Source: Lentimicrobiaceae bacterium (GTDB taxonomy: Bacteria; Bacteroidota; Bacteroidia; Bacteroidales; UBA4417). From it: DNA of 64,000 nt. The notes below the pieces were generated by a model. It was not told the DNA's origin, did no database searches, and saw nothing but the letters and a program-made list of their open reading frames with translations. Of this stretch, positions 8,390 through 36,319 are shown piece by piece. Every line of letters starts with the position of its first letter. Within the stretch, counting starts at the first letter, position 1. The translations under genes and the position numbers were made by a program. The DNA is taken from positions 138,017 to 202,016 of the forward strand of contig JBGSUB010000067.1 of assembly GCA_041753535.1 (NCBI GenBank), written 5' to 3'.

Positions 8390-8550
8390 CAGGGTTTGTT
8401 TTGGGATTTATTTTTAATGTTCACTAATTTTTAGTTTTTAAACGTTTAGGTAACAAAATTCTGCTTGTATTGAAATCAATCGGATTTAGCTATTGCGACT
8501 TAGTTTCTGAACGGTCTTCATGCAGCTTCAGGCATTACAAACAAAACTAA

Positions 8551-12142: not shown

Positions 12143-15100
12143 TTACAGATGTATATCCACAACGTTAAGTTGTTGATTTAAAAAGGATAAAAACAGATCA
12201 GAAGGAATAACAGCCCCACCTTTGCGGTATTTGTTTTCTTCCAACGTAAAGTCAATTTCATTTCCATTGACGCTTATCTCTTTGGGGCTGAAGTTATCGT
12301 GCTTTACATTGTACTTGAATGTGATTGCATGATCCATAAAGTCGATTGTAGCCGATAAACCATCCATCGAATGAGGAATCACAGGATCAATTATTACTTT
12401 TCCAACTTCTGGCCGTAACCCAAGCAACCGGGAAATAACCAGCGTAATGTAAATTCCGGGCCCGCTGGAATATACACGCCATCCGCCCCGGAGAGTGATT
12501 TTACCGGTTTTGATTTCATCATAACGCTCATCGGCTTCGTACCTGCTTTTGAATGCCACATCCGAACTGCTGTAATAGCAGTTGGCCTGGCGGATATCGC
12601 CACACGGCACAACATCGCGGTAACCTACAGGATTTGCCTGGCGGAGTGCTTTTACAAATGCGTCTGTATTGCCTGTAATGGCCTGTGATTCAGCATAGCG
12701 AATGTGCTCGTGAACATACATGATGCCTATTTCACGACCGAAATGTGTGGCACTTTCGGCACGTTGAAAAATAGTCTGAATTCCACCTTTGTATTTTAAA
12801 GGGCGGTCCATCAATCGCGCTCCATCAGGACCTTTCAAATGTTTCTCAATCAATTGCTGATGGTGTTGTGCTTGTTCTTTTGTAAAAATGCCGCTTATCA
12901 CTCCGCGATCCATCGGTAACAAACTATAATGTATGCCGGTTGTGGTATCGCTGGGATGAAGCAAGACACTGATACTTCCATCTTTCTCAAGCAGTCCGTA
13001 TCCGGCAACTACACCATCTTTAACCAGGTATTTGTTGAAATCGGATTTAATCTTAGTACAGATATCGTCTAATTCTTTTGCTTTTCCGGTGTTTCCGGTC
13101 TGCAGATACACATTTTTGTACTCATTAAATGCCTGGTAATTCATTTCCACCGTCCAACTCGAAATCATGCGTTCAGCCAGTTCTTTGCTTACGGGTTGGA
13201 GCGAATCGTTCCAGTCGCCGCCGCCAAAAGGCACAAGCGCAGTGCCTGGAATGTATGAATCTGTAATCATCTTTACGAGCCTGTCGAGATGTTCGCTTAA
13301 CGGAGTTTTTTCGGCGTAAGCAACACCTTTTTCGTGGTAATACGGAAGAATTTCATCGAGGAATTTCACATCGCCTGTAACTTTAATATAGCTGCTTAGC
13401 GCGATGATGCACCAGTAATAAACATCGCCATGGCAATCGCCGGCACGGATATTGAAATAGCTGTCGAACATCCACCACTGAGGCCAATCGCCAACCGTAT
13501 TCTGATTGGAGAAGATGGTACGGAGCACTTGTTTGGATTCATCAAACTTTTGTAAATTCAACAGAAGGTCAAAAGGTCCCTGCGAAACATCACGTGTTCC
13601 CCAGGCAGCGCCGCCAAATTGTTCCAGGCCGTGAGGCGTTAGAAAATGAGTAACTGCATTCATGCAAAACCAGGGCAGGATTTCCTGAATAGCGGCTGAA
13701 TCTTCATCCTTTCCTTTCAGCGAAAGGTTTAAACTCATGTCGCTCAAACCTGACTGGGCATCAGAGCAATCCGATTGAAATTGCTGATCTGTATTTTTTA
13801 TTTTTTCAATTGGGATGATTTCGCAAACCTCACCAACAAAACTCATTGAAAAACAGTCGGTTTTTTTTATATCAAGCACGAAAAATGAATCACCCCGTCT
13901 TATAGATTCAAAATTAACTGCCTCATTACCGAAAGCATTAAATTCCGAATTGCTGTTTACCAATATCCGGAATTGCGCTTTCGGGAATTTCTCTGCAATC
14001 ATACTTCCAACTTTAGGTTTGGAAACAAATTCTCCGGGACTATTTCCCGGAAGAACCGTCCATCCATTGCTTTCGTCAAAGTTATTTGTAATAAGCAATT
14101 TAACCTTTTCACCGCTTAAAACTTTAAAATCAATGTTTACGCGTGGAGATGTTTTTGAAGTCCATGTTCGGACCTGAAAAATATTCTCCCCAAATTTGTA
14201 TATCCAGCGGAAGTGGTTTAATCCCATTTCGAAAGCAGAAGGAACACCCAGCAAATATGACTTTCCATCGATTTCAACAAAAATTCTCTGACCTGTTTCC
14301 GGCTCATCGTTAAACTGGCTGGTGCAGACTGAAAGAAAAATATTAAAATTTGTATTGCCTTGTGTAACATGCGAATTGAAAATCCCGCCTGCAAAACAAG
14401 TAGTTGAAACAATGTTTTCATCCGCTTTGTATCCTGCCTGTGCCTGTATAATATTTCCGTGCGGCCGGTCAGCCAGGATTTCTTTTTCGCGCAATACTAC
14501 ATGGTTATTCGGTCCATAGAAAAACGATAACAACTTCCCGTTTTCGGTTTCGGTTTGCCTTCTGTTTTGATCAAAAAAGTGATTAATTTCTTCATCGTTC
14601 AGATCATCAACTGGCAAAAATGCTGAAGTGTTAAATAAGTTATGTGTAGGGGATAAGAACTTTTCTTCCTTATCAATTGAAATATCATTTTGAAATTCCA
14701 GCATCAAACCCGGAAGTTTTATTAAATCATCTGCTGATGTTGCTGTTGGATGATCAGGCAAATAAGTTGCAACAAAAACGCTGTTATGTGCTTCACCGGA
14801 AGGGAGTGAAAATGGACTTTCCTGCAAAGCAACCATCGACAATTCTCCTGCATATTCACCTCCGAGTGATTCTGCTTTCAATCCTTCAGGAATTCCGGTT
14901 CCACGAAAAGTTTTTCCCAGGAACTGCATTCCATCTGTACTTGCTGAAACTGCCTGGTTTTTACATGCAAGCATGATCCATGGATTACCTGTCGATTCCT
15001 TTGTATTCTGACGGCAGCAAACCACTGAACCATATTGTTTATCTTCAAGAATAAGTCTTTCAATATACTGGCTTACATAATATTCGTTAACCAATCCAGT

Positions 15101-15484
15101 TGAGATTGGCTTTAATCCGACATCCTGAACATAAATTAAATCGAGCTCAATAGTTTTGTGAGATTTGTTCTTAATATCAATGCTCCACTGCCAGCACATG
15201 CTTTTCTTCGAAAGCTGCATAATACACTCATAATCAAGTCCGTCCCAACTTCCTTGTGCAACAAATGACTCATTCTTTGTAAGGAAATGACTATTGCTTT
15301 CCGGACCTAATAGTGCCTTGAATTCGAACGGATTACTCCTTTTACGCAGGTATATGTTGGCTCCCGATTTTGAATACAATGTTGCAGTTTTTAGGCTAAT
15401 CCGTATCGGATCGGCTTCAATATGCTTAATCGATCCATTTTCGAGGAAATCGATTGAGAGGCCGGAGGAATTTTTAATGTTCAT
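12143..15484 (-). CDS. GH94 glycoside phosphorylase, long form (1,2-beta-oligoglucan phosphorylase-like)
   Basis: 1113 aa with no signal peptide. GH94 catalytic-domain motifs GGAAWGTRDVSQG and FGGGDWNDSLQP (GDWND catalytic Asp motif), plus RGGWRVYSSGPGIY. The length fits the ~1100-aa sophoro-oligosaccharide phosphorylase subgroup rather than ~800-aa cellobiose phosphorylases. Confidence 0.8.
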   Translation of the reverse strand: MNIKNSSGLSIDFLENGSIKHIEADPIRISLKTATLYSKSGANIYLRKRSNPFEFKALLGPESNSHFLTKNESFVAQGSWDGLDYECIMQLSKKSMCWQWSIDIKNKSHKTIELDLIYVQDVGLKPISTGLVNEYYVSQYIERLILEDKQYGSVVCCRQNTKESTGNPWIMLACKNQAVSASTDGMQFLGKTFRGTGIPEGLKAESLGGEYAGELSMVALQESPFSLPSGEAHNSVFVATYLPDHPTATSADDLIKLPGLMLEFQNDISIDKEEKFLSPTHNLFNTSAFLPVDDLNDEEINHFFDQNRRQTETENGKLLSFFYGPNNHVVLREKEILADRPHGNIIQAQAGYKADENIVSTTCFAGGIFNSHVTQGNTNFNIFLSVCTSQFNDEPETGQRIFVEIDGKSYLLGVPSAFEMGLNHFRWIYKFGENIFQVRTWTSKTSPRVNIDFKVLSGEKVKLLITNNFDESNGWTVLPGNSPGEFVSKPKVGSMIAEKFPKAQFRILVNSNSEFNAFGNEAVNFESIRRGDSFFVLDIKKTDCFSMSFVGEVCEIIPIEKIKNTDQQFQSDCSDAQSGLSDMSLNLSLKGKDEDSAAIQEILPWFCMNAVTHFLTPHGLEQFGGAAWGTRDVSQGPFDLLLNLQKFDESKQVLRTIFSNQNTVGDWPQWWMFDSYFNIRAGDCHGDVYYWCIIALSSYIKVTGDVKFLDEILPYYHEKGVAYAEKTPLSEHLDRLVKMITDSYIPGTALVPFGGGDWNDSLQPVSKELAERMISSWTVEMNYQAFNEYKNVYLQTGNTGKAKELDDICTKIKSDFNKYLVKDGVVAGYGLLEKDGSISVLLHPSDTTTGIHYSLLPMDRGVISGIFTKEQAQHHQQLIEKHLKGPDGARLMDRPLKYKGGIQTIFQRAESATHFGREIGIMYVHEHIRYAESQAITGNTDAFVKALRQANPVGYRDVVPCGDIRQANCYYSSSDVAFKSRYEADERYDEIKTGKITLRGGWRVYSSGPGIYITLVISRLLGLRPEVGKVIIDPVIPHSMDGLSATIDFMDHAITFKYNVKHDNFSPKEISVNGNEIDFTLEENKYRKGGAVIPSDLFLSFLNQQLNVVDIHL

Positions 15485-17917
15485 TTAACTCAACTTGATG
15501 GTAAGAATCATTACATGTTTATGTTTGTGACTGTAAATCATAGCTATCCGTTTTTCGTCACGGATTTCTCTGACAGATTCTCCGTTTAAATTGGCGGAAC
15601 TGATCTTTTTAACACCCGGACCCTCGAAAACTATTTCTCCTGCCAGGTCACGATCGCCATAAAGGGTAATTTCAACCTGATTTTCAGTTTTAACAATTCC
15701 AAGAATATCAGAAGTGCAATGCAGAATAGATAATCCGTCAGAAACTTTCATACATACCGGGCTTAGTATGCCATACAAGGCAGGCCAAAGCATCTCTCCA
15801 TGTGCATAAGGAATGGTTATAGTTTCTCCGTTTTCAGGATGTGTGTATGTGATTTTGCCTGTTTGTTCTTCGTTGTAATAATTGGCTACGAAAAGAACTG
15901 CGGCTTTGTCGCTGGTAAATCGTTCGCGAACAGCAATATTTTGATTGTTGGTCGAAGCTTGTCTGAGTTTAGCTTTTGATAGGTTAAGAAGCGCTTCATA
16001 CACAGGTTTCTGACCTTCCGTATCAAAACCAATCCACGTTCCGAGATGAGTAAGCGATCCGTTTCCGAGTGATTTTGTAAATCCGCATACCGAATTCCGG
16101 AGTGTTCGTGCAATTATTTTAGCACCAACCAGCGATTTTTCCGAATATACAACAAGAGGATTAGCGCACTTGATATCCTGCAGGTCAAAAACATCGATAA
16201 GTGGCGAATCAATAATTTCCTTTCCGGAAGGATAAACCGACAAAGCATCGCGAGTTATTGAACATGGTTTCTGCGACATTTCACGATCGGGGAGGTAGGG
16301 GAAAAGTACAAGGTTCCCGCCAGCTTTTGTATATTCAACAATGGTTTTCTGATCCGACGCATTCATTTCATCTGTGCTGAATGCCCAAACCTGTTTGTAA
16401 TTTCTCATTGATTCAGCTGAGGCTTTGGTAAGATCCATCATATCGTAATCAATATTAAGTATCTGAAGAACTTTCAATAAACCATCGAAATAAGCAGGCC
16501 TTCGAATAGCAGAAGGGTTAAATAGGAGTTCACAGGCTCCGTCAACAGGTCGTTCCAACTCCGAAGCGTAATATGGCGGATAAAAAAGGACGCAAACTTC
16601 AGCCTTACGCTTCGAATCAACGATAAGGCTTTCGGAAGTTTTAATGATTTTATTCATCCGTTGAACCAACGGAAAAGCACTTGTGCGCTCACCTTCAGGA
16701 GTGAGCGGGTTAAACCAATAGAAGGTGGAGCCTGAATAACCAGTGTGCCTGGTGTTTCGTCCTTGCGAAAACATATAGTAATTCCAGCCGGTGAGGCCGT
16801 TTGCAATGCTGGCTTTGTAGAAAAGTTCCATTTCACGCGGATTGGTAACCACATGATATTCGCGAGATCCACTCTGAAACTCGGCAGCAAACAAAGGCTT
16901 GTTGCCTTGCATGGCAAAGGTTATGTCATTTATAATCCGGTCGTCGTGCATATTGCGGTACGACAGGAATTCCGGGATATGATCGACACCGAATATAATC
17001 TCGCTTTTATCAAGAAACAGATCTTCGTACATCGTAATATTGACGGGGAATTCATAGCCATTACCATAAATCCAGCCCGGAAGATTGTGATACAAAGGAA
17101 CACTAACTCCTCTTTCTCTTGCCATGGCAGTTAGCATTCTCAGGTAGTCGCCATAATATGTCCGCCAGAAATTATGCCATTCGTGATCGCGGCCACGATC
17201 TGCTTTTGAAGCATAGGGAAGTCTTCCGTCAGGTGGAAGTTCAACGTTGGCAAAATCCTTGTAATTGGTTGCCCAAAGGCTGTTGAGTTCGTCAACATCA
17301 GTAAATTTCGTAATTAAATAGGCGGTGAAACGATCTTTCACTGCTTCGCAATAGTCAGCCTGGTGTGCCAGCCACGAGAAAACGCCGATCTCGTTGCAGA
17401 TCTGCATCATAATTATCGGTCCGCCGTTTGAAAGCTGGCGTTCGCTGATAAAAGGCATGATCTTATCGTACCAGAGTGTTACCTTTTCGAGGTATTTTTC
17501 GTTAAAAAGACTTACACCATCACTTGCAACAATGCCTCCTTTGCTGTTACGCATCTTAACTTCATCGCTGTATTGATCCATAAACCAGTCGGGCAAACCT
17601 GCACCGCGATACTCGGCAAGAATGAATGGTCCAGGTTTTACAATGCAATGCATTCCGTGAGCCTGGCAACTATCAATCCATCCTTTCAGATCACGTTCCG
17701 GACTAGAGGAACCATCAAAATCAAAAACACCTTCTACAGATTCGTGAAATGCCCATGGAACGTAAGTGCTGACTGTTGTAAGGCCCGCTTCTACGGCTGC
17801 ATCCAGATGCTTATCCCACAGCTCGCGTTTAATACGGAAATAATGTATTTCTCCCGAATTGAGAAACACCTTTTTGTCGTTAAGATAGAAGTTATTTTCC
17901 TTGATAGTGAAGGTCAT
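15485..17917 (-). CDS. Cytoplasmic GH35-family enzyme (formally beta-galactosidase family; context suggests action on beta-1,2-gluco-oligosaccharides)
   Basis: 810 aa with no signal peptide. GH35 TIM-barrel motifs TYVPWAFHE, acid/base region IIMMQICNEIG and nucleophile region PLFAAEFQSGS. Its stop codon (15485-15487) directly abuts the GH94 ATG (15482-15484). Confidence 0.8.
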   Translation of the reverse strand: MTFTIKENNFYLNDKKVFLNSGEIHYFRIKRELWDKHLDAAVEAGLTTVSTYVPWAFHESVEGVFDFDGSSSPERDLKGWIDSCQAHGMHCIVKPGPFILAEYRGAGLPDWFMDQYSDEVKMRNSKGGIVASDGVSLFNEKYLEKVTLWYDKIMPFISERQLSNGGPIIMMQICNEIGVFSWLAHQADYCEAVKDRFTAYLITKFTDVDELNSLWATNYKDFANVELPPDGRLPYASKADRGRDHEWHNFWRTYYGDYLRMLTAMARERGVSVPLYHNLPGWIYGNGYEFPVNITMYEDLFLDKSEIIFGVDHIPEFLSYRNMHDDRIINDITFAMQGNKPLFAAEFQSGSREYHVVTNPREMELFYKASIANGLTGWNYYMFSQGRNTRHTGYSGSTFYWFNPLTPEGERTSAFPLVQRMNKIIKTSESLIVDSKRKAEVCVLFYPPYYASELERPVDGACELLFNPSAIRRPAYFDGLLKVLQILNIDYDMMDLTKASAESMRNYKQVWAFSTDEMNASDQKTIVEYTKAGGNLVLFPYLPDREMSQKPCSITRDALSVYPSGKEIIDSPLIDVFDLQDIKCANPLVVYSEKSLVGAKIIARTLRNSVCGFTKSLGNGSLTHLGTWIGFDTEGQKPVYEALLNLSKAKLRQASTNNQNIAVRERFTSDKAAVLFVANYYNEEQTGKITYTHPENGETITIPYAHGEMLWPALYGILSPVCMKVSDGLSILHCTSDILGIVKTENQVEITLYGDRDLAGEIVFEGPGVKKISSANLNGESVREIRDEKRIAMIYSHKHKHVMILTIKLS

Positions 17918-17992: not shown

Positions 17993-20089
17993 TTATGAAT
18001 CTTCCCAGTGTGGCCTTTTAGCATTAATCTCTAAATTTGCATGATTCGCATTCCTTTTCTTAAGCAGGTCTTTGATTTCGTGCGAGCGTTTCTCGGTAAG
18101 TGAGTACCTCAGAACAAAGAAAATTGAGAAAATACTCAACAACATGGGAAGTCCGATTTCAACTACACGCATCATCAACAGTGTATAGGGTGATTGAATC
18201 GTTAGCTGAACAGTATCGGTTTCGAGAGTGCTGAGCTCTTTGTCCAGTTGATCCAAAGGCATATCTGTGGTTATTCTTGCCAGTTTTTTATCTACTCCAA
18301 TGCTGTTTTGAATAATTTGAGCGTAATGTTCCCTGCTTTTATCCGATTCAAGCGATTTGCCTTCAAGGTGTGCCAAAAGCTCAAAAGAATTCAGTCTCGC
18401 TTTTTCTAGTTTAGGCTGAAGTATTAAAGGGATAGCTGTGTTTAAAACGGTTTTGGTCAATGAGTCAGGTGATTGAGTGCTGATATTTCCCAATTGCACC
18501 TGTAATTTCTCCAATTCACTTATCGTTGATTTAGTGGTTAAGATTACCTCCGATAACTTGTTTTTCCGTTGATTTTTATATTCCGCAACATTCTGATAGG
18601 TTTCGTCCTGCTTTTTTACTGATTCTTTTTCAAGAACTTTTACATAGAGTTTTGAGTCATCGATTGCCTCAGCGACCTCTTTTTTTGTGTTCTGAAGCAA
18701 AGTTGTATTTGTACCAGACAAGCCCTGATCGCCCTGCCAGTCTTTGATATCACTCCTTATTTCCCTGATATTTCCCTGCAAACTGTCCACTTTTGTAACC
18801 TGTGTTTCATCAAAAAGGGTAAAGACAATCAACGCACCCGCGATTAAACTAGCTAGCGCTGTTCCCATTTTAATAAACCACCAGAAAACGGAATAGAAAC
18901 TTCCTTCGGAGCGGTGACCGGTTTTTAATTCATCTTCATCGCAGATATCGCCAACCATGGATGATCCCAAGGTAAAGAAAAATAACATACCTGCGGAAAG
19001 CAATACAGTCGGGATAAGTACAAGATACGGATAGGTTGGATTGTAGCACACAATTTTCGAAGCTTGTGCTAAAACCATGAGAATAATTGCAATGGTGAGG
19101 GTTTTTCGCTTACCAAGCCTCGGACTTATCCAGTTGAGTGGAAAAACGGCAAGCACTCCGGTTATGGCCCAAACTGTACCATTGATTCCAAGAAGCGTGG
19201 CTCCTGCAACTTTATCGCCACCATAAATATAAAATATAGGAATGTACGAACCCAGCAGGCTCACAAAATTGAAACCCATTGCCAGGGTGAAAATGGTAAG
19301 CGTAAGCATGATAAAATTCCTGTTGTTGGCAGTGCGTTTCATGTCAGTCCAGAAAGGTGTTTTTTCCTGCGTCTCAACTTTTTTAAATCCCGGTTCGCGC
19401 AATTTTAAAAACCACCAGAAGGAAAGTGGAATCAGGACAGCCGCGATAAGTATGGAAACATAACGCATTCCATCCATTTCGTTGCCACCCGGACCTTTGA
19501 ATATTTCCATACTTGCAAGTGCAAACAGCCATGGTGTGCTCATGGCAAAAAGATTGCCAACGAAACTTTTAGCGCTGAATAGTCGGGTTCGTTCATGGTA
19601 ATCGGTCGTCATTTCCATTCCTAAAGCTCCGTGAGGAATTTCGAAGATATTCACTGCCGTGAAAAAGATCAGAAGAGATATCAGAATATAGACAAGCTGA
19701 AACGCCTGAAAACCGGAGTCGGTCGGGAACCAGCTATGTACCAGTTCACCTTTTGGAATCCACCATATAACAACAAACGAGAGCGCTACAGCAATTCCTC
19801 CCAATAACAGATATGGACGACGGCGGCCCCAGCGCGTGCGGGTATTATCCGAAAGATGACCAATGATTGGATCGGACAGCGCATCCCACAAACGGGGCAC
19901 AATCAGTATCGCTCCAAGCCAGAAAGCGCTCAATCCCAGGCTTATATTGCCCATCAAGCCTACAAGTATTCCGGCTACGTTGAAAAGTGCAATAGGAATT
20001 ATCCCTCCGGCTCCATAGGCAGCCAATTGTGAAAAGCGGATTTTGTCCTCTGCCTTTGTGCTTCTGTCGACCGTAATTTCTTCTTCCAT
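17993..20089 (-). CDS. GPH-family (glycoside-pentoside-hexuronide:cation symporter) MFS transporter with a large insert before the last TM helix
   Basis: 698 aa. GPH signature DALSDPIIGHLSDNTRTRWGRRRPYLL after TM2. There are 11 hydrophobic helices, then a ~215-aa hydrophilic, heptad-rich segment (residues ~427-640), then a 12th helix VVEIGLPMLLSIFSIFFVL. Confidence 0.85.
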   Translation of the reverse strand: MEEEITVDRSTKAEDKIRFSQLAAYGAGGIIPIALFNVAGILVGLMGNISLGLSAFWLGAILIVPRLWDALSDPIIGHLSDNTRTRWGRRRPYLLLGGIAVALSFVVIWWIPKGELVHSWFPTDSGFQAFQLVYILISLLIFFTAVNIFEIPHGALGMEMTTDYHERTRLFSAKSFVGNLFAMSTPWLFALASMEIFKGPGGNEMDGMRYVSILIAAVLIPLSFWWFLKLREPGFKKVETQEKTPFWTDMKRTANNRNFIMLTLTIFTLAMGFNFVSLLGSYIPIFYIYGGDKVAGATLLGINGTVWAITGVLAVFPLNWISPRLGKRKTLTIAIILMVLAQASKIVCYNPTYPYLVLIPTVLLSAGMLFFFTLGSSMVGDICDEDELKTGHRSEGSFYSVFWWFIKMGTALASLIAGALIVFTLFDETQVTKVDSLQGNIREIRSDIKDWQGDQGLSGTNTTLLQNTKKEVAEAIDDSKLYVKVLEKESVKKQDETYQNVAEYKNQRKNKLSEVILTTKSTISELEKLQVQLGNISTQSPDSLTKTVLNTAIPLILQPKLEKARLNSFELLAHLEGKSLESDKSREHYAQIIQNSIGVDKKLARITTDMPLDQLDKELSTLETDTVQLTIQSPYTLLMMRVVEIGLPMLLSIFSIFFVLRYSLTEKRSHEIKDLLKKRNANHANLEINAKRPHWEDS

Positions 20090-20110: not shown

Positions 20111-23100
20111 TTAGTAATAGATAACCACTTCTGCAGGAATCACCTTAACAGAAATCTCTTTTTCATTAAACTCTTTAATAACCGTTCCGTTCACGGTTAT
20201 TTTTGCCGGAAGCTTCGATCCATTGAAGTTTTTAATTTTCATGCCGTTTGCCGGAAGTTTTACATCGCCGGTAATGGAGAAGCGATAATTGCTGCTTTCT
20301 TTTTTGATTGAATAGGAAATCTCACCGTAGTAGGTTGGCAGATTTTCAATGGACATTCCCTGTGGCGCATCAATCCAATCCTGGTAAAGTGCCGAAGCTA
20401 GCACAAGCGATTGATCATACTCATTTTCGTATACAAACATGGAACGTATGGAATTGATAAAATCGCTACCAACCCAGGTATGCGGCATATCTCCGATAAA
20501 ACCGGGGAAACGGTCGTTTTTCCAAACCACTTCAGCCCAGTGGTTCCAGCCTTGCGGTTTTTGATCCTTCAGGAAAAAGTCAATTAACTCATGGGCCCTG
20601 TCCGGCTGATCCAGAATTATAAAAGAACCGATCAGGCGGTTTTCGTAGGGAGTATAATTCACCCAGTCGAGTTTGCCATCCCTGCGGTTTTTGAAAAATC
20701 CGTAATATTTATCAAACGTGTTGTAAACCTGTGGTTTTGGCAGGTTTTTCAGTTCGTTGCAGGGTGTTAATGCTACGGTTGTTGAGGTGGCATCAAAATC
20801 ACCCAGTTCGGCACAACCGGGGATGTAATCAATTTTCCTGTTTTTCATCGCGAGTTGCAGAGAGTTGTAAAGATTCTCCTTAAACGTATCGCGAAGTTTG
20901 GTTATGCGTTCATAATCAGCGGTTTTGCCAAGTATTTTCTGAATCTCCACGGCATCCTTCAATCCTTTGATGGTAAAGAAATTATCCCAGTAGGAGTGCA
21001 TAGGTTTGGCTGAATATCCTTCGTGGCTGATGGATTCCGGAACCAGGCCATAATGTGCTCTTACACTTTCGTTCCCGTTTTTAAAATAATCTGTCGAGCG
21101 CTCGGCCACCAGGGCTTCGATGTATTCAACAGCCTTCAACACATGGTTGTTGTTCGATTTCAGAAAAGCAGTGTCGTGGGTAAAGTTGAAATATTCGCGG
21201 ATCAGGTAAATCAGTTGCCCGTGGCTGTCGTTTTCGGGAACAGGGTCGGGGCCCCTGAAATCAACCACGCAGGGAACCTTGCCGTTTTCGTATTGGTGGG
21301 CTGCATACCAGACGATAAAATCTTTTACTTCCTGTACGATTCCGGATTTTAAAAGTGCGGATGAAGTGAGGGAGCCGTCGCGGATCCAGCTTCGCTCGTA
21401 TGAGCGTGAGCCGGGTTGAATGCCTGCCTTGTCCCGGTTCAATAAAATATACCCCAGGTTCGATTTATATGTATTTACAATCCTGTCGCCCGAGGGGGGC
21501 AGATTGAAACGGATATGGCTGGTTTTTTCTTTCCAGAATTCAGCAGATTTCGCAAATTCAACTGAAGTGTTGTCGGCGCTGAGTTTTCCGTCGGGAGTAT
21601 TTTTACCATAGAAGGGAACTGCCAAAAACAATTCCGTACTTTCGCCCGGATTAAGAAGTAAACTGTATTTAACCAAACCATTTGCCAGGCCGTTTTTATC
21701 AACGGCTGATTTACTTACCGGCATTTTCCCCTGCCGAACAAGGTCAACAATATTTCCTTCATCAAAAGCGCTTGCTCCGAAGGAATCGTATTTCTTTTGA
21801 AAAAGCACAACTTTATCGTCCACTGACACATAATTGCCGGCTTCTTCTTTGATGGATTTGATTTTTCCGGCCCCACCGGTCATATTCAGAAACTGGTAGT
21901 ATGGATTAACCTGGTACGGACGGATAAGCAGGTAAAACTCAAAATCCTGCGGCTTGTCCGAGGTGTTATGTAAAAAGTACCTGATGTCGAGTTTTGAATT
22001 TTTGTTAGCCTCGCCGGTTGCTGTAACACTGCTAACTAATGTGAGGTTTTTTAACTGCCAGGTGACCGACGGAATAAAATCAAATTCACGCTGATCTTTT
22101 GAGTTCCCCATCGATTGGCTGGCTTTTACATTGTGCCAGTTATAAATTGAATCCCCCATTTTAATAAGCGGCTCGATGGAAAAGAGGCCTTTATCCACTT
22201 CTACAATCCCGTCCTCGCTGATCATGGCTTCTTTTACATCATTGTTTACACCGGCAACGGTCCAGAAGGATGCCAGCTCCGAAAAGTACCTCGGGTAGTT
22301 TCCAACAGGAGAGTTTTTTGCTGTGTAAATCAGGAAATCATTCGGTAATAAGGATTCTTTAATGCTCAGAAATTTAATTTCGCTGATTGCATAACCTTCG
22401 GAATTACTGTTTATAAGGTTTATCTTCATGAACCTGGCTTCAGCCTCGGGCAACCGGATAAAACTTACATTACTCTGATTGGACTGAACGGAATAAACTT
22501 TTTCCCAGTTTTTTTCGTCAGTTGAAAGTAGTATATCAAAGCTTTTTGCTGATTTGTCTTTCAGCCAGTCGATCTGCAAACCGCCGAATTCCCTGCGGGC
22601 TTTGAAATCAATAGTAACGATCTGAGCTGCAGATTTGCTGCTTTGCCAGGAGGTTTTATCCGATTTATCAAATAATAAAGCTGTATTCTGTTTTTTTTGC
22701 GAAGAAGTTGCTGTTGCAACAGGCTGCGGATAAGTTTGCGTTTCGGGCGGCAAAGCTTCAAATTTGAAATCATCGAGCCAGATGGTTCCTTTTCCGCCAA
22801 CAAAGGATGCGATTGTGAATTCAATCCGGTCGATACGTTTTAAATTCTGGTCGGTGGTTGGTCCCCATGCAAAACTTATGTGTCTTTTTTTGATGGTTAT
22901 CTTTTTCCATTCAGTCGGGAAATCGTAGTTGCGGTTGCTCACCCACCAAACGTTGTCACCTGATTTATCTGCAAATTTTATTTCAAAATTATTGGCAGGC
23001 GATTCGGCTTTCACATAAAACGTAAACTGGTAATTTTCAGGCATGTCAATCGGGATGAGTTTCTGAATTCCGCCGTAACCGGTTCCGTGAGTGAAATCGT

Positions 23101-23293
23101 AATCAAATCGTATGGCATTGCCGGTTAATCCTTTTTCGTTGGATAAGTTAAGATTAACACCATCGGACTGTATGAAATACCATCCGTTTTTGTTCTCGAA
23201 CTCATCGAGGGTTTTTATTTGAGCATGGATCAGGTTGATTGTGAGTAACAACATGATCAATACTGCAGTTTTTTTTCTGAATAGCTTTTCCAT
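20111..23293 (-). CDS. Secreted multidomain protein: jelly-roll CBM-like + F5/8 type C (discoidin) + beta-sandwich + (alpha/alpha)6-like putative glycoside hydrolase, family unassigned
   Basis: 1060 aa. Signal peptide ..LLLTINLIHAQ. N-terminal CBM11/CIA30-like module ending TIWLDDFKFE. Discoidin module (DKTSWQS.., FGGLQIDW, YAISEIKF). Helical region with the glucoamylase-like motif SYERSWIRDGS. C-terminal beta-sandwich. Confidence 0.6.
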   Translation of the reverse strand: MEKLFRKKTAVLIMLLLTINLIHAQIKTLDEFENKNGWYFIQSDGVNLNLSNEKGLTGNAIRFDYDFTHGTGYGGIQKLIPIDMPENYQFTFYVKAESPANNFEIKFADKSGDNVWWVSNRNYDFPTEWKKITIKKRHISFAWGPTTDQNLKRIDRIEFTIASFVGGKGTIWLDDFKFEALPPETQTYPQPVATATSSQKKQNTALLFDKSDKTSWQSSKSAAQIVTIDFKARREFGGLQIDWLKDKSAKSFDILLSTDEKNWEKVYSVQSNQSNVSFIRLPEAEARFMKINLINSNSEGYAISEIKFLSIKESLLPNDFLIYTAKNSPVGNYPRYFSELASFWTVAGVNNDVKEAMISEDGIVEVDKGLFSIEPLIKMGDSIYNWHNVKASQSMGNSKDQREFDFIPSVTWQLKNLTLVSSVTATGEANKNSKLDIRYFLHNTSDKPQDFEFYLLIRPYQVNPYYQFLNMTGGAGKIKSIKEEAGNYVSVDDKVVLFQKKYDSFGASAFDEGNIVDLVRQGKMPVSKSAVDKNGLANGLVKYSLLLNPGESTELFLAVPFYGKNTPDGKLSADNTSVEFAKSAEFWKEKTSHIRFNLPPSGDRIVNTYKSNLGYILLNRDKAGIQPGSRSYERSWIRDGSLTSSALLKSGIVQEVKDFIVWYAAHQYENGKVPCVVDFRGPDPVPENDSHGQLIYLIREYFNFTHDTAFLKSNNNHVLKAVEYIEALVAERSTDYFKNGNESVRAHYGLVPESISHEGYSAKPMHSYWDNFFTIKGLKDAVEIQKILGKTADYERITKLRDTFKENLYNSLQLAMKNRKIDYIPGCAELGDFDATSTTVALTPCNELKNLPKPQVYNTFDKYYGFFKNRRDGKLDWVNYTPYENRLIGSFIILDQPDRAHELIDFFLKDQKPQGWNHWAEVVWKNDRFPGFIGDMPHTWVGSDFINSIRSMFVYENEYDQSLVLASALYQDWIDAPQGMSIENLPTYYGEISYSIKKESSNYRFSITGDVKLPANGMKIKNFNGSKLPAKITVNGTVIKEFNEKEISVKVIPAEVVIYY

Positions 23294-23497: not shown

Positions 23498-24895
23498 CTA
23501 TTTTAAATATGCGTACCCAAGTCTGGTAAGGCCTTTCTGTATAATCGGATCCTTCATTACATAATCCCACACCAGTCCGGTTCTGAAATTTTCGATCATT
23601 ATCAACATTGGTCCTTGATCAATTCCGATAAAGTCATTGTTGACCCACTTTATTGTCGGATTAAAGGAATCATAATACCCGTATTTTCCCCATAATTCCT
23701 TACCATATTTTGCATTGATCGATTTCATGGTAGGTAAAACGATTTCAGGTGCAAACGGCAGGGATGACATAGGGCCGTATGGGGCGATGGTTCCGTCTTC
23801 AGCAATTGTGTGATCCCGTCCACTGCTTCCTCTGCCTGCATATCCTTCAAACTTTTTATCCCCGAAATTAAATGAACTCCCGGGTCCGTCGCTGGCAGTA
23901 AATCCCCAGCACAGGGAATCATAGCCAACCCATCCTTTTGGGTTTTCTATGGCATATTCCCTTTGAACGAAAGTGGCACGCCGGGAATTTTCGAAATAAT
24001 CAATACCTTTTTCTTTCATGTATTTGTCCCCAAGCCCACGATAATCAATAAACGCCTGCGAAAACTGGTGACCGAATAAAGGAGGAAAAGCCACATGCGA
24101 AAGTCCTTCGTAAGGTGTTTTCCAGTCGTAGGTCGAAAGCCAGGAATTATAACTTTTCTCTACATCTTTCATACCTGTTCCGGCAGCAAGAACATACAAA
24201 AACAGACCTTCATTATATCCGCTCCAGCCATGGTTAAGCAATCCTTCCTCCGGCGACCATGCCATCGATATGCAATTAGCATGTTTTCCGCTTGGTGGCA
24301 TCAGGAAAAAACTCCAGTCCATTCTCCCAAGCAACATGGCTGAGAGTTCCCGAATCTGCTTTTCATCCGCGTTGTCGAGGTTATAATAGTTTCGGGCAAA
24401 TAGTATACCCATCATCAGCAAGCCTGTATCAATGGATGAAAGCTCGCACTTCCATTCGCGGGTGCCGGAATTCATACGAAGGAAATGGTAATAAAAACCC
24501 TTGTACCCTGTTGCATTTGTATCAGTGCTTTGAACGGAATTGGCAAAGAATTTCAGCATATTTAGTGTAATCTCTGCTGCCTGCTTCCTAGTGATCCAGT
24601 TTCTTTCGGCACCAATTGCGAGTGAGGGAATACCAAATCCTGTGGATGCAATGCTGGCAGGAGCCCATGATGCGGCACGGTCTTTAACAATTCCCATTTC
24701 AGGGTGATGCTCGTTTAAGAAGAAAAGGAACGTTTTATACTGAATGGAATCCAGCATAGCTGTTTCATCAGCAGTCAGAGGGTAATTAATCTTTCCCTGC
24801 GATTGGAATTCGGTTTTCTGCGATTGAGCACAACCCGAAACCGCCATCAGAATAAAAAAGAATAATATTTTACTGAGTTTTAGCTTGTTTTTCAT
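23498..24895 (-). CDS. Divergent GH144-like (DUF3131 superfamily) lipoprotein, putative beta-glucanase
   Basis: 465 aa. Lipobox MAVSGC. It follows the same motif order as the other GH144 copies but is clearly diverged: YKTFLFFLNEHHPEMGIV, STGFGIPSLAIG, GFYYHF, SIDTGLLMMGILFA, MAWSPEEG, GYNE, WGFTASDGP, LPFAPE, YGYYDSF, IDQGPMLIMIENFRTGLVW. Confidence 0.7.
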   Translation of the reverse strand: MKNKLKLSKILFFFILMAVSGCAQSQKTEFQSQGKINYPLTADETAMLDSIQYKTFLFFLNEHHPEMGIVKDRAASWAPASIASTGFGIPSLAIGAERNWITRKQAAEITLNMLKFFANSVQSTDTNATGYKGFYYHFLRMNSGTREWKCELSSIDTGLLMMGILFARNYYNLDNADEKQIRELSAMLLGRMDWSFFLMPPSGKHANCISMAWSPEEGLLNHGWSGYNEGLFLYVLAAGTGMKDVEKSYNSWLSTYDWKTPYEGLSHVAFPPLFGHQFSQAFIDYRGLGDKYMKEKGIDYFENSRRATFVQREYAIENPKGWVGYDSLCWGFTASDGPGSSFNFGDKKFEGYAGRGSSGRDHTIAEDGTIAPYGPMSSLPFAPEIVLPTMKSINAKYGKELWGKYGYYDSFNPTIKWVNNDFIGIDQGPMLIMIENFRTGLVWDYVMKDPIIQKGLTRLGYAYLK

Positions 24896-33472: not shown

Positions 33473-36319
33473 TTAAAACTGCATAATGTATTCAACCAGG
33501 TTGTCATCGCCCGAAAGTGAAAGCCTTTTGCGTAAGCGGTAGCGACGAATCTCAACTCCACGTATGGAAATATTAAGCAATGGTGCAATTTCTTTCGACG
33601 ACAGGTTCAGTTTCAGGTAAGCGCACAATTTCAGATCGCTCTGAGTAAGATCGGGAAAGGAATGTTTCAATCGTTTAAAGAAATTTTCATGAGCCTGGTC
33701 GAACAGGGCTTCAAATATTTCCCAGTCGTTATCATTCGAAATATTTTTATCAATAAGTGTAGTCAACTTCTGCAGGTAACGCGCCGGGTAACGCGGCCCG
33801 AGTTCTTCTTTCTGTTTTTCAAGTTCCTGTTTAATTTCAATCAGAACTTCATTTTTTCGTATTATCGAAATGGTTGAGTCGGCAAGTTGCATGTTTTTAT
33901 GCGAAATCTCAGCTTGTAATTTGTCATTCTGTAACTTAATAATTTCCTGCTCAGCATGTTCTTTTTCGGTCTCACGCTTTTCATCAGCAAGGCGACGAAG
34001 ATTTTCATGCTGTTTCCTTAATCGTTTCCGAAACAAATACTGGCTGAGCAGAATCCCTCCCAGAGCTATTAGAATGTAAATTATTGTAGCAGGAACAGAT
34101 GCATACCACGGTGGTTTAACACTGAATTCGATAGTTGTGGGTTCTGTTACACCACCATTCCCGCTAAGGGTGCGCACTTTAAACTTGTATTTTCCAACAG
34201 GAAGCCGTGTATATTTAGCCTGATTATTTTCCGACCAATTGCTCCATCCGGCATCTATGCCTTCGAGCAGAAATTGATAAAGTTTCTTTGAACAGGGGTT
34301 TTTCAGGGATGAAAATGAGATTGAAATATTGTTGTAGGAATTTCTTAAAGAAAATGAAGTTGATTCCAGCCCGATGTTCTGCATTTCGCCATCTGCATTG
34401 CTGCATACAAATTCACGAAAAACCACTATCGGATCGGCTGCTCCTGTTTTTAGAAAGGTACGGTTAAATATAGCAAAACCATTATCAAGACATATTAAAT
34501 GCTGATACTCGTTTAAGGGGACAACATTCTCGTATCCATCTACTAAGCTTACTTTATACTGAGGAAGAATCAGCCGGTATTGGATTTCAGCTTTATTCCC
34601 GGAAATACTAAAAATAGCAGCTTCATCTCTGGTAACAAACCAATAGTTGTTTTCATCAATCCCCGAAATAAATGAAGCTGCCTGGAATCCATCCAACTTG
34701 TTGTTTAAATCGGAATAGGGGATTATTCTTTGATTCAGATCATCCCAGGTAAACAACTCACTTCCATTTGAAAATACTACCCGGTTGGCTATTTTGTAAA
34801 CCCGGATATTAAAGTCGGATGGCAAGCCGTCCTTTACCCCGTAAATGTATTTTTCTTTAACACTATCAAGTTTTGCCGATAGTCGTAGCCGGTACAATCC
34901 TTTTACAGCATGGCCTATCCATATATTTCCAAGGTGGTCGGCCTCAATAAAACGGGCTGGTTCAATAAATCCGTTTACCAGTTGGTGGAATTCCCAAGTG
35001 TTCCCTTTTTTTCTATAGATTACAAGATTTGAATACGTGCTTTGGATCAGAAATTCATCTCCTTTCAGATTGATTTTCTGGATCATATACCCACCACTCA
35101 CGTTCGATATCATCCGTAGTGAATTGTTATCGATCATGTAAGTTCCGCTTGTATGTCCGCAGAATAGTTCACCGTCAATTTCTTTGAGTTGCCATACCTG
35201 CCCTTGCGAATTCTTCAGAAAACCTTTGTAAATAAAGCGTTCACCAACTTCTGAGTATGTAAATATTCCACGGTTTGTACCCACAAATAAAGTGCCTTTC
35301 CAGAGAGCAGCAGTATAAACAGCGCCAAAAGCGTCGTTCCTTGCCGGGTATATTTCTACTGGGCTGGGAATGGTGATATTATCAACACCATTATCAAGCC
35401 CTACCCATATTCCTTGATTGTTATCGTTGCAAAGAGCCAGTACAGTATTATTCTGAAGGTCGTTTTCGCTGTTCAGATGGTTCAGTATTCTGCCATTGGT
35501 ATCAAGAATGAATAGCCCTTTTACTATGGTTCCGAAAACGATTTTATTGTCGAAAATTATCCCGTTATTGATCTGGAATTCCTTAAATAACGAATTAGCT
35601 TCTGTATTCCAGGGCGTTATGGTTTTTCCATCAAGGACAAACACCCCTTTTGAGGAAGTCCCAAGCAGAAACATGCCTTTTCTGTAGGGAAGTATTGTCC
35701 TTACTTCGGTTCCGGTTAAAACGCTGCTGTTACCAATGCTGATAAATTTATCGTTAATGATTTCGTACAATGTACCTTGAACTGCTTGTGCAAAAAGCCT
35801 GTTTCCGGCTTTTAAAAGGAACACTATAGTTCCCGGCAGTTGTATTGATTTTACAGTTTTGTGATCGTAAACAAACAAGCATGAAAATCCCTGGAAATAA
35901 ACTTTGTTTCCCAACTCAACAATTTTCCATATTTCATGATTGTGTAGATCGGGATTGTTCAGCAAGGGTACAAGTGAATAGTATTTCAATCCTTTTACTG
36001 CATCCTTTTTCCAGTATCCGAAATCTTCGTGTGAACCGGTGTAGATCAAATCGTCTTGACTACATGCAACTGAACGTAGTATCGTTCGCGAAGGGAGAGG
36101 AAATATTTTCCAGTTAACACCATCATAAACCATCAGCCCTTTATTGTTGGCAACATATACAAAGCCCTGCTTGTCCATATCCACCGACCAGTTCTGGCTT
36201 CCGGCGGCATACTGGTTGCGCGAATATTGAGTAACATGGTAGGAAGTCTGTGCCACAGTTATATTATGTGGAAAACAGAAAATGCTGCAGATAAAAAATG
36301 ATATAAAGGCCGTTCTCAT
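33473..36319 (-). CDS. Membrane-anchored one-component regulator: periplasmic beta-propeller/Y_Y_Y sensor + single TM + coiled coil + LuxR/GerE HTH
   Basis: 948 aa. Signal peptide. Repeated propeller-like segments (WVGLDNG, IWIGHAVKGLY). Y_Y_Y-like region (YQFLLEGIDAGWSNW.., KYKFKVR). TM helix VPATIIYILIALGGILLSQYLF. 185-aa cytoplasmic tail ending in the HTH LTQSDLKLCAYLKLNLSSKEIAPLLNISIRGVEIRRYRLRKRL. No HisKA, HATPase or REC motifs seen. Confidence 0.8.
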   Translation of the reverse strand: MRTAFISFFICSIFCFPHNITVAQTSYHVTQYSRNQYAAGSQNWSVDMDKQGFVYVANNKGLMVYDGVNWKIFPLPSRTILRSVACSQDDLIYTGSHEDFGYWKKDAVKGLKYYSLVPLLNNPDLHNHEIWKIVELGNKVYFQGFSCLFVYDHKTVKSIQLPGTIVFLLKAGNRLFAQAVQGTLYEIINDKFISIGNSSVLTGTEVRTILPYRKGMFLLGTSSKGVFVLDGKTITPWNTEANSLFKEFQINNGIIFDNKIVFGTIVKGLFILDTNGRILNHLNSENDLQNNTVLALCNDNNQGIWVGLDNGVDNITIPSPVEIYPARNDAFGAVYTAALWKGTLFVGTNRGIFTYSEVGERFIYKGFLKNSQGQVWQLKEIDGELFCGHTSGTYMIDNNSLRMISNVSGGYMIQKINLKGDEFLIQSTYSNLVIYRKKGNTWEFHQLVNGFIEPARFIEADHLGNIWIGHAVKGLYRLRLSAKLDSVKEKYIYGVKDGLPSDFNIRVYKIANRVVFSNGSELFTWDDLNQRIIPYSDLNNKLDGFQAASFISGIDENNYWFVTRDEAAIFSISGNKAEIQYRLILPQYKVSLVDGYENVVPLNEYQHLICLDNGFAIFNRTFLKTGAADPIVVFREFVCSNADGEMQNIGLESTSFSLRNSYNNISISFSSLKNPCSKKLYQFLLEGIDAGWSNWSENNQAKYTRLPVGKYKFKVRTLSGNGGVTEPTTIEFSVKPPWYASVPATIIYILIALGGILLSQYLFRKRLRKQHENLRRLADEKRETEKEHAEQEIIKLQNDKLQAEISHKNMQLADSTISIIRKNEVLIEIKQELEKQKEELGPRYPARYLQKLTTLIDKNISNDNDWEIFEALFDQAHENFFKRLKHSFPDLTQSDLKLCAYLKLNLSSKEIAPLLNISIRGVEIRRYRLRKRLSLSGDDNLVEYIMQF

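Follow-up and report, generated by a model that had tools for sequence, protein, structure and literature searches.

AmpG1 of Acinetobacter baumannii, a major facilitator superfamily (MFS) transporter, carries a periplasmic immunoglobulin (Ig)-like domain of ~196 amino acids (aa) between transmembrane helices (TM) 11 and 12, which binds the lytic transglycosylase Slt; the domain is confined to one clade and was proposed to couple periplasmic glycan cleavage to import (PMC13507758). In QacA, the helical hairpin EL7 is essential for transport and acts allosterically on the extracellular gate (PMC10425836), and the periplasmic TM11-TM12 extensions of Rv1410 and MHAS2168 are essential for transport and guide the substrate (PMC10576003). 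For glycoside transporters of the MFS, the available portion of a 2026 review on bacterial glycoside transporters gives lengths of 400-550 aa, with the Gram-positive lactose permeases as the sole exception named there, and mentions no insert of the kind described below (PMC13543919). Transporters of beta-1,2-glucans were called poorly characterized in a 2026 paper, and only ATP-binding cassette (ABC) systems with binding proteins have been studied for the passage of beta-1,2-glucan fragments across the cytoplasmic membrane (PMC13731917). Here we analyze a 64,000-nucleotide stretch of DNA from a Lentimicrobiaceae bacterium (hereafter, the window), in which a beta-1,2-glucan utilization locus encodes a 698-aa MFS transporter of the GPH family with a large hydrophilic insert between TM11 and TM12.

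The kind of transporter and the presence of a periplasmic insert at TM11-TM12 have known counterparts, whereas the helical domain that forms the insert is an orphan. In the reading that we favor, this domain would cap a sophoro-oligosaccharide:cation symporter on its periplasmic side, where it would act on the substrate vestibule or its gate and possibly dock an enzyme. We assign this reading a probability of roughly 40% and prefer it because of the conservation pattern of the insert and the QacA and Rv1410 precedents, from which the role as a cap or gate is inferred; the identity of the substrate is suggested by the gene context.

A helical domain between TM11 and TM12 of a GPH symporter

The Pfam profile MFS_2 matches the intact protein with 226 bits (cut-off 27) over residues 49-434 and profile positions 26-394 of 427, that is, the match stops just past TM11. 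When residues 431-631 were removed in silico, the match extended over positions 25-427 of 427, the full 12-TM core, and the score rose to 242 bits. It follows that the segment behind the insert is the canonical TM12 and that the TM11-TM12 loop is the exact site of the insertion. The earlier note on this DNA, made from the sequence alone, had placed a hydrophilic insert of ~215 aa between these two helices, and this is borne out by the in silico deletion and by hydropathy: in the Kyte-Doolittle analysis with 19-residue windows, hydrophobic segments continue until residue 429 and are followed by a single one at 635-665, and the peak value within the insert is 0.69 versus 1.7-2.3 in the TM helices. 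The insert contains no Cys, carries a net charge of -5, and is rich in L (29 residues), K (22), T (21), E (18), S (18) and Q (17).

The assignment of the protein to the GPH family as an inner-membrane oligosaccharide importer, also proposed in the earlier note, is supported. The NCBIfam model TIGR00792 ('gph') matches in two stretches with 160 bits, below its curated cut-off of 231 bits; this shortfall would be consistent with the insert and with sequence divergence and leaves the superfamily assignment unaffected. Other NCBIfam matches, to MelB and glucuronide transporters, are weaker. The best Foldseek match of the full-length model is MelB (9oli; E-value 1.9e-6), and MFSD2A and other MFS structures were also recovered. 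The best 120 relatives (see below) are annotated merely as 'MFS transporter' or 'GPH family symporter'.

The roles of the cation- and sugar-site residues of MelB are taken here from the published MelB and MFSD2A structures. In alignments to MelB (4m64, 8t60) and MFSD2A, D69, S72, D73, N147, E150 and K407 of the transporter correspond to D55, N58, D59, T121, D124 and K377 of MelB, respectively. The acidic pair of TM2 is retained (WDALSDP here versus WDAINDP in MelB and WDAFTDP, with D93 and D97, in MFSD2A), and among the orthologues D69, E150 and K407 show no variation and D73 almost none. Because these key residues are retained, the core can be expected to operate by cation-coupled alternating-access symport. 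The sugar-site residues W128 and R149 of MelB are not kept, which fits a substrate other than that of MelB. The charged pair R641/E644 of TM12, within the motif MR..EIGLP, is invariant even in the most divergent family members, and such a pair is unusual for an outer 'support' helix of the MFS; it may link the insert to the transport cycle.

The N-terminus, the loops between helices 2 and 3 (GHLSDNTRTRWGRRRP), 4 and 5, 6 and 7, 8 and 9, and 10 and 11, and the C-terminal tail are rich in K and R, as expected of cytoplasmic segments. In the canonical 12-TM MFS topology, an established fold, the TM11-TM12 loop is periplasmic, and the insert is accordingly most probably periplasmic, as had been proposed. 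The alternative of a cytoplasmic insert docking the enzymes encoded downstream (SOGP and a GH35-like protein, see below) was dismissed, since the MFS topology would then have to be non-canonical, yet the MFS_2 profile match is complete.

Two AlphaFold2 models were produced, one of the full-length protein with a 50-sequence alignment at 71-93% identity and one of residues 396-690 with 74 orthologues. In the full-length model, the mean predicted local distance difference test score (pLDDT) of the core is 59.6 and the insert forms six helices at 70-90. Values of 34-60 prevail across most of a well-established MFS core, next to 70-90 in an orphan insert; in this family, the core is too uniform for covariation. 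The model of residues 396-690 reached a pLDDT of 78.4 and a predicted template-modeling score of 0.64, with the insert modeled as an intramolecular bundle of its own. Both models make the insert all-helical, with pLDDT of 70-92 over the two, and the loops that join its helices comprise 3-11 residues.

The insert had been described previously as heptad-rich and as a periplasmic coiled-coil extension that could reach toward the outer-membrane SusC complex. The hydrophobic occupancy of heptad positions a and d exceeds that of shuffled sequences only in residues 428-452 (helix a1, P<0.001) and 612-630 (helix a6, P=0.011), and the remaining four helices show no excess. The amphipathic moment summed over all six helices is greater than in shuffles (P=0.0085). 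The insert is clearly helical and amphipathic, with a resemblance to canonical coiled coil confined to its first and last helices. Given that significant heptads are confined to a1 and a6 and that the loops between the modeled helices are short, the long coiled-coil extension is better worded as a predicted six-helix bundle on a short two-helix stalk. A reach to SusC appears geometrically unlikely because the longest predicted helix has 40 residues and would span about 60 Å.

The insert is an orphan domain for which no relatives were found in the searches of sequences and folds described here. Searches with Pfam and NCBIfam of the insert alone, and with Pfam (including 4HB_MCP, HBM and the Ig families) of the 74 orthologous inserts, yielded only noise and no family match, and a sequence search of the PDB found no relative (best E-value 0.027). 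When the insert was compared by exhaustive phmmer search to 1.84 billion cluster representatives, only 36 proteins matched. The seven transporter-type matches that were examined are incomplete or divergent proteins of this same family, high-GC versions among them, and a match to a 1614-aa protein resembled coiled-coil noise. Comparison of the TM11-insert-TM12 model to the PDB with Foldseek produced nothing significant (best E-value 0.044, template-modeling score of 0.31 or less). The structures matched, namely, de novo maquettes, XaxA, BAR domains and trypanosome receptors, are generic long helical bundles and were rejected as relatives. TorS (3o1j) appeared only at rank 46 (E-value 0.38, score 0.15), and the families of periplasmic helical sensors were unmatched. 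There was also no sign of internal duplication in the insert: hhalign of the N-terminal against the C-terminal half gave a probability of 0.2%, and self-comparison did not surpass that of shuffled sequences.

A search of 5.8 billion proteins retrieved 2990 relatives of the transporter. The best 120, which were examined, are all 681-712 aa long and 71-97% identical to it, and come from Lentimicrobium, Bacteroidales, Marinilabiliales and related metagenome-assembled genomes (MAGs). A scan of one genome per species across 185,579 species identified 391 loci encoding a relative. We kept 80 of these, mostly from Bacteroidales, together with loci from Verrucomicrobiae/Limisphaerales MAGs and one short Terriglobales contig (L072, 3960 bp), which might be a binning error. 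The insert evolves fast but is clearly constrained, that is, under purifying selection: in 14 close pairs, the ratio of nonsynonymous to synonymous substitution rates (dN/dS, Nei-Gojobori) was 0.06-0.38 for the insert and 0.006-0.12 for the core. The mean column identity is 0.91 in the core and 0.61 in the insert (78 sequences, the window protein and 77 orthologues), and divergent members are 77-85% identical to the window protein in the core and 25-47% in the insert.

Even where the insert is only 25-33% identical, FD(E/Q)xQVTKVD..QG, H588-Y589 and QxPxTLxxMRxxEIGxP remain invariant. In closer orthologues, conservation falls on a1 in its N-terminal part, on a2, a4 and a6 in their C-terminal parts, and on a5 at its start. 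If the six helices form an up-down bundle, all these stretches would lie at its membrane-facing end, as a conserved base with the motifs FDETQVTKVD, LEKES, KLEKAR..FEL.SHL, HY and QSPYTLL. Among the 64 possible assignments of helix orientation, the up-down model ranks second by the gradient of conservation against height (rho 0.21, p 0.007).

The beta-1,2-glucan locus of the transporter

The locus in the window encodes a membrane-tethered regulator, SusC, SusD, a LamG lipoprotein, four PF10091/GH144-type proteins, a GH3 protein, an exported 1060-aa protein, the insert-bearing transporter and a GH35-like enzyme, along with SOGP (Table 1). SOGP acts on beta-1,2-gluco-oligosaccharides, and IaSGT, a relative within GH35, is a beta-1,2-glucosyltransferase from a comparable cluster with an ABC importer and a Sopn-binding protein (PMC8861115). 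Because both the GH35-like enzyme and SOGP of the window lack signal peptides, their substrates must be imported. For the regulator, which the earlier note had taken for a one-component membrane-tethered sensor, Pfam reported Y_Y_Y and Reg_prop only, at the threshold used, and no kinase or receiver domains, in agreement with that view.

In 50 of the 51 loci with at least 6 kb of downstream sequence, the GH35-like and SOGP genes follow directly on the same strand within 6 kb, and the gap from the MFS match to the GH35 match has a median of about 69 bp. Upstream, 46 of the 54 loci with at least 6.5 kb of sequence on that side encode the 1060-aa protein and the GH144 lipoprotein. A divergent family member (G131), with an insert ~25-33% identical to that in the window, retains the same five-gene synteny. 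In a sample of 401 genomes across the phylum, the insert was detected in two, and these two genomes, with no others, also had SOGP_N (PF21958); no importer apart from the insert-bearing MFS protein was seen with SOGP in the sample. The genome analyzed here encodes one other GPH paralogue, 29% identical, without an insert. Taken together, the synteny, the co-occurrence with SOGP_N and the insert-free paralogue show that the insert belongs specifically to the transporter of SOGP-type beta-1,2-glucan loci rather than to GPH proteins in general; the earlier note had asked whether it is restricted to transporters in GH94/GH144 loci. In Bacteroidota, the insert-bearing transporter appears to act as dedicated importer in all cases in which SOGP is present.

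The operon is also present in Verrucomicrobiae/Limisphaerales MAGs (L052, L053, L054, L057, L074 and L076). These loci encode neither of the two upstream proteins and keep only MFS-GH35-SOGP and a divergently transcribed GH144-like gene; in L053 this gene (6903-9086) encodes a 728-aa PF10091/DUF3131 protein. Identity between the Bacteroidales and Verrucomicrobial versions is 83% for the MFS core, about 75% for GH35 and about 68% for SOGP, values that point to probable transfer of the MFS-GH35-SOGP operon across phyla. The transporter thus appears to have spread into Verrucomicrobia with the SOGP/GH35 operon. Upstream of the transporter in L053, at a distance of about 4.6 kb, there is a gene for a DDE_5 transposase.

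Table 1. Positions of the transporter, its parts and the neighboring genes in the window (residue numbers refer to the 698-aa protein)
Feature	Position	Strand	Basis or location
GPH/MFS_2 cation symporter with inserted domain, 698 aa	17993..20089	-	Open reading frame, Pfam MFS_2, Foldseek, orthologues
N-terminal cytoplasmic stretch and TM1-TM11 of the MFS core (residues 1-426)	18812..20089	-	Pfam, hydropathy, MelB/MFSD2A alignment
TM11	residues 398-424		AlphaFold2
Hydrophilic all-helical insert in the TM11-TM12 loop (residues 427-640; domain proper 427-633)	18170..18811	-	Hydropathy, in silico deletion, AlphaFold2
Helix a1 (428-452), continuous with TM11; near-invariant FDETQVTKVD..QG; significant heptads	18734..18808	-	Model, conservation
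Helix a2 (461-491); C-terminal half conserved (Y482, L486, E489, K492)	18617..18709	-	Model, conservation
Helix a3 (503-535); most variable helix, entropy 2.03	18485..18583	-	Model, conservation
Helix a4 (542-581), 40 residues, two prolines; C-terminal half conserved (KLEKAR.NSFEL.SHLE.KS)	18347..18466	-	Model, conservation
Helix a5 (586-605); starts with H588-Y589, invariant in every divergent member examined	18275..18334	-	Model, conservation
Helix a6 (612-630), running into TM12 via conserved LT.QSPYTLLMM; significant heptads	18200..18256	-	Model, conservation
TM12 (about 634-660); invariant R641, E644, I645, G646, P648	18110..18190	-	Hydropathy, in silico deletion, orthologues
TM12 plus tail	residues 634-689		AlphaFold2
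Basic cytoplasmic tail (661-698), RYSLTEKRSHEIKDLLKKRN, helical in the model	17996..18109	-	Sequence, AlphaFold2
GH35-like enzyme with GLMA-like second domain, no signal peptide; IaSGT family	15485..17917	-	Downstream
SOGP, no signal peptide	12143..15484	-	Pfam SOGP_N, SOGP_2nd, SOGP_4th
Exported 1060-aa protein with F5/8 type C domain; frequent but not obligatory neighbor	20111..23293	-	Upstream
Diverged GH144-type (PF10091) lipoprotein, candidate periplasmic endo-beta-1,2-glucanase	23498..24895	-	Upstream
Locus regulator, membrane-tethered, with large periplasmic sensor	33473..36319	-	Pfam Y_Y_Y, Reg_prop

Possible roles of the insert

TM11 is among the helices at the interface of the N- and C-domains of MFS transporters. 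In the reading that we favor, the GPH/MelB-type symporter would be the cytoplasmic-membrane importer of the beta-1,2-glucan locus, most likely of sophoro-oligosaccharides with a degree of polymerization of 3 or more. The GH144 enzymes would make these oligosaccharides in the periplasm, and from the importer they would go to the cytoplasmic phosphorylase SOGP and to the GH35-type enzyme, whose genes follow directly downstream. The TM11-TM12 loop would have been exchanged for a clade-defining periplasmic domain of ~207 residues, a six-helix up-down bundle on a heptad-patterned stalk, which a1 and a6 form as prolongations of TM11 and TM12. At its membrane-facing base, the bundle appears to be conserved nearly as strongly as the core, and the distal part would evolve about four times faster while keeping its length. 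The insert could then cap the C-domain side of the substrate entrance, with its conserved base extending or gating the outward-facing vestibule for long, rigid oligosaccharides. On a larger scale, such an arrangement would be akin to the TM-extension hairpins that are essential in QacA and Rv1410; the distal bundle, which is variable, would be a spacer and possibly a docking surface for periplasmic glucanases, as in the AmpG1-Slt pair.

Several points weigh against such a cap. The substrate is inferred from the gene context only, and the packing of the bundle on the transporter and its up-down topology are presumed; with the core at a pLDDT of 59.6, the full-length model does not reveal how the insert is oriented on the core. 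The conservation-height gradient is modest and comes from a1, a2 and a4, with none in a3 or a5. Moreover, a gate can do with far fewer residues than 207 (25-38 in QacA and Rv1410), a point in favor of a further role or of another one.

One such role, possible although on balance unlikely, would be that of a dock of the AmpG1 type: the insert would bind one of the exported glucan-cleaving enzymes of the locus (a GH144 paralogue, GH3 or the 1060-aa protein), oligosaccharides would thereby be set free beside the importer, and the bundle would take no direct part in the transport cycle. AmpG1 fits this scheme in insertion site, size and logic (PMC13507758), although the fold of the insert is all-alpha rather than Ig-like. 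Fast evolution under purifying selection, seen in the distal helices, is common in lineage-specific interaction surfaces, but the strongest conservation is found at the membrane-proximal junctions, not on the distal surface. GH144-type genes occur in nearly all loci, including the divergent one beside the Verrucomicrobial operon, whereas in the Verrucomicrobial loci that keep the insert neither the 1060-aa protein nor the orthologue of GH144_465 is encoded within 10 kb. Correlation of pairwise distances, a weak test with 31 loci, gave no partner-specific signal, with periplasmic and cytoplasmic neighbors tracked equally: the insert correlates poorly with GH144_465 (r 0.15), and with the 1060-aa protein (0.62) it correlates no better than with the cytoplasmic enzymes (0.60-0.61). 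It is distinctly improbable, in our estimate, that the insert is itself a tethered receptor that binds beta-1,2-gluco-oligosaccharides, feeds them to the MFS core and replaces the solute-binding protein of ABC systems, with H588-Y589 and the conserved base of the bundle as a sugar site directly above the transport path. The SOGP/SGL clusters of Listeria, Ignavibacterium and Chloroflexus rely on ABC transporters with Sopn-binding proteins (PMC8861115, PMC13731917), while the locus in the window encodes no Sopn-binding protein and its MFS transporter bears an extra periplasmic domain. The conserved residues W451, Y482, Y504, F569, H574 and H588-Y589 could form a sugar platform; among the aromatic residues, however, only H588-Y589 is invariant in divergent members. 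All-alpha glycan binders exist, SusD being an example, but the insert resembles no carbohydrate-binding family in Pfam, in PDB sequences or in fold, and we know of no MFS secondary transporter that uses a built-in receptor. Should this possibility hold nonetheless, it would be the first case of such a transporter with a substrate-capture domain doing the job of a solute-binding protein.

The heptad patterns of a1 and a6 could also indicate intermolecular coiled coils, by which the transporter would form dimers or trimers or, as a transceptor, contact the periplasmic sensor of the regulator. We regard this as very unlikely. A membrane-tethered one-component regulator with a large periplasmic sensor is indeed encoded in the same locus (33473-36319), but it was not found, at the thresholds used, in the flanks of the 80 related loci, most of which end short of it. 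The faint fold likeness to helical sensor and BAR-type bundles, with TorS at rank 46, is offset by the insignificance of every fold match (E-value of 0.04 or higher, template-modeling score of 0.31 or less), and AlphaFold2 yields a self-contained intramolecular bundle (pLDDT 78). The chance that the open reading frame is an assembly or annotation fusion, a caveat raised in the earlier note, or that the insert is degenerate, functionless filler, is negligible. The sole weak point here is that all the sources seen are MAGs. The same uninterrupted architecture recurs across the independent genomes of 391 species and across thousands of proteins from metagenomes, the insert has a fixed length (214 aa in 61 of the 77 complete orthologues, range 210-238), dN/dS is well below 1, and TM12, which is needed to complete the MFS fold and restores the full MFS_2 match upon deletion of the insert, lies only past it; a fusion or frameshift is thereby effectively ruled out. 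Compared with these alternatives, the periplasmic cap remains the reading that we prefer. Whether the insert acts as a gate, an enzyme dock or a receptor, its function would extend the knowledge of MFS mechanisms and of polysaccharide utilization loci, and the insert would serve as a sequence marker of beta-1,2-glucan utilization in metagenomes.

Comparison with described transporters

In the literature searched, we found no description of an MFS or GPH transporter linked to GH144 or SOGP, nor of a GPH transporter with a large periplasmic loop. The statement of the earlier note that the insert has no characterized precedent is nevertheless no longer accurate, given that AmpG1 (PMC13507758), QacA (PMC10425836) and Rv1410 (PMC10576003) are partial precedents.

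With MelB and the other members of GPH (TC 2.A.2), the transporter shares the 12-TM MFS_2 core and the glycoside class of substrates, and MelB structures are its best structural matches. Sequence identity to MelB is about 20%, with the cation-site aspartates and the equivalents of D124 and K377 conserved. MFS transporters of glycosides are usually 400-550 aa long with short periplasmic loops, whereas this protein has 698 aa and a TM11-TM12 loop of 207 aa. The transporter and the ABC binding proteins, that is, the Sopn-binding protein of Listeria and Chy400_4166 of Chloroflexus, occupy the same position in the pathway, delivery to the cytoplasmic SOGP (PMC8861115, PMC13731917). Those binding proteins, however, are separate alpha/beta proteins that serve ATP-driven transporters and have no sequence or fold relation to the insert.

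AmpG1 is similarly an MFS importer of glycan fragments with a periplasmic domain of comparable size at TM11-TM12, but it belongs to the AmpG family and combines a 14-TM core with an Ig-like domain, in contrast to the GPH core of 12 TM and the all-alpha bundle found here; the insert and the AmpG1 domain show no sequence relation, and no Ig family of Pfam matches the insert. The likeness to QacA and Rv1410 lies in the helical continuation of the last two TM helices of the C-domain outside the membrane. These two are DHA2 exporters of drugs or lipids with hairpins of ~25-38 residues, unlike the present sugar importer with its 207 residues and six helices. Because the bundle occupies the same loop as the hairpins (QacA, Rv1410) and the Ig-like domain (AmpG1), each of which was shown to be essential for function, the comparison suggests that the TM11-TM12 loop is a general hot spot at which MFS transporters gain periplasmic accessory functions.

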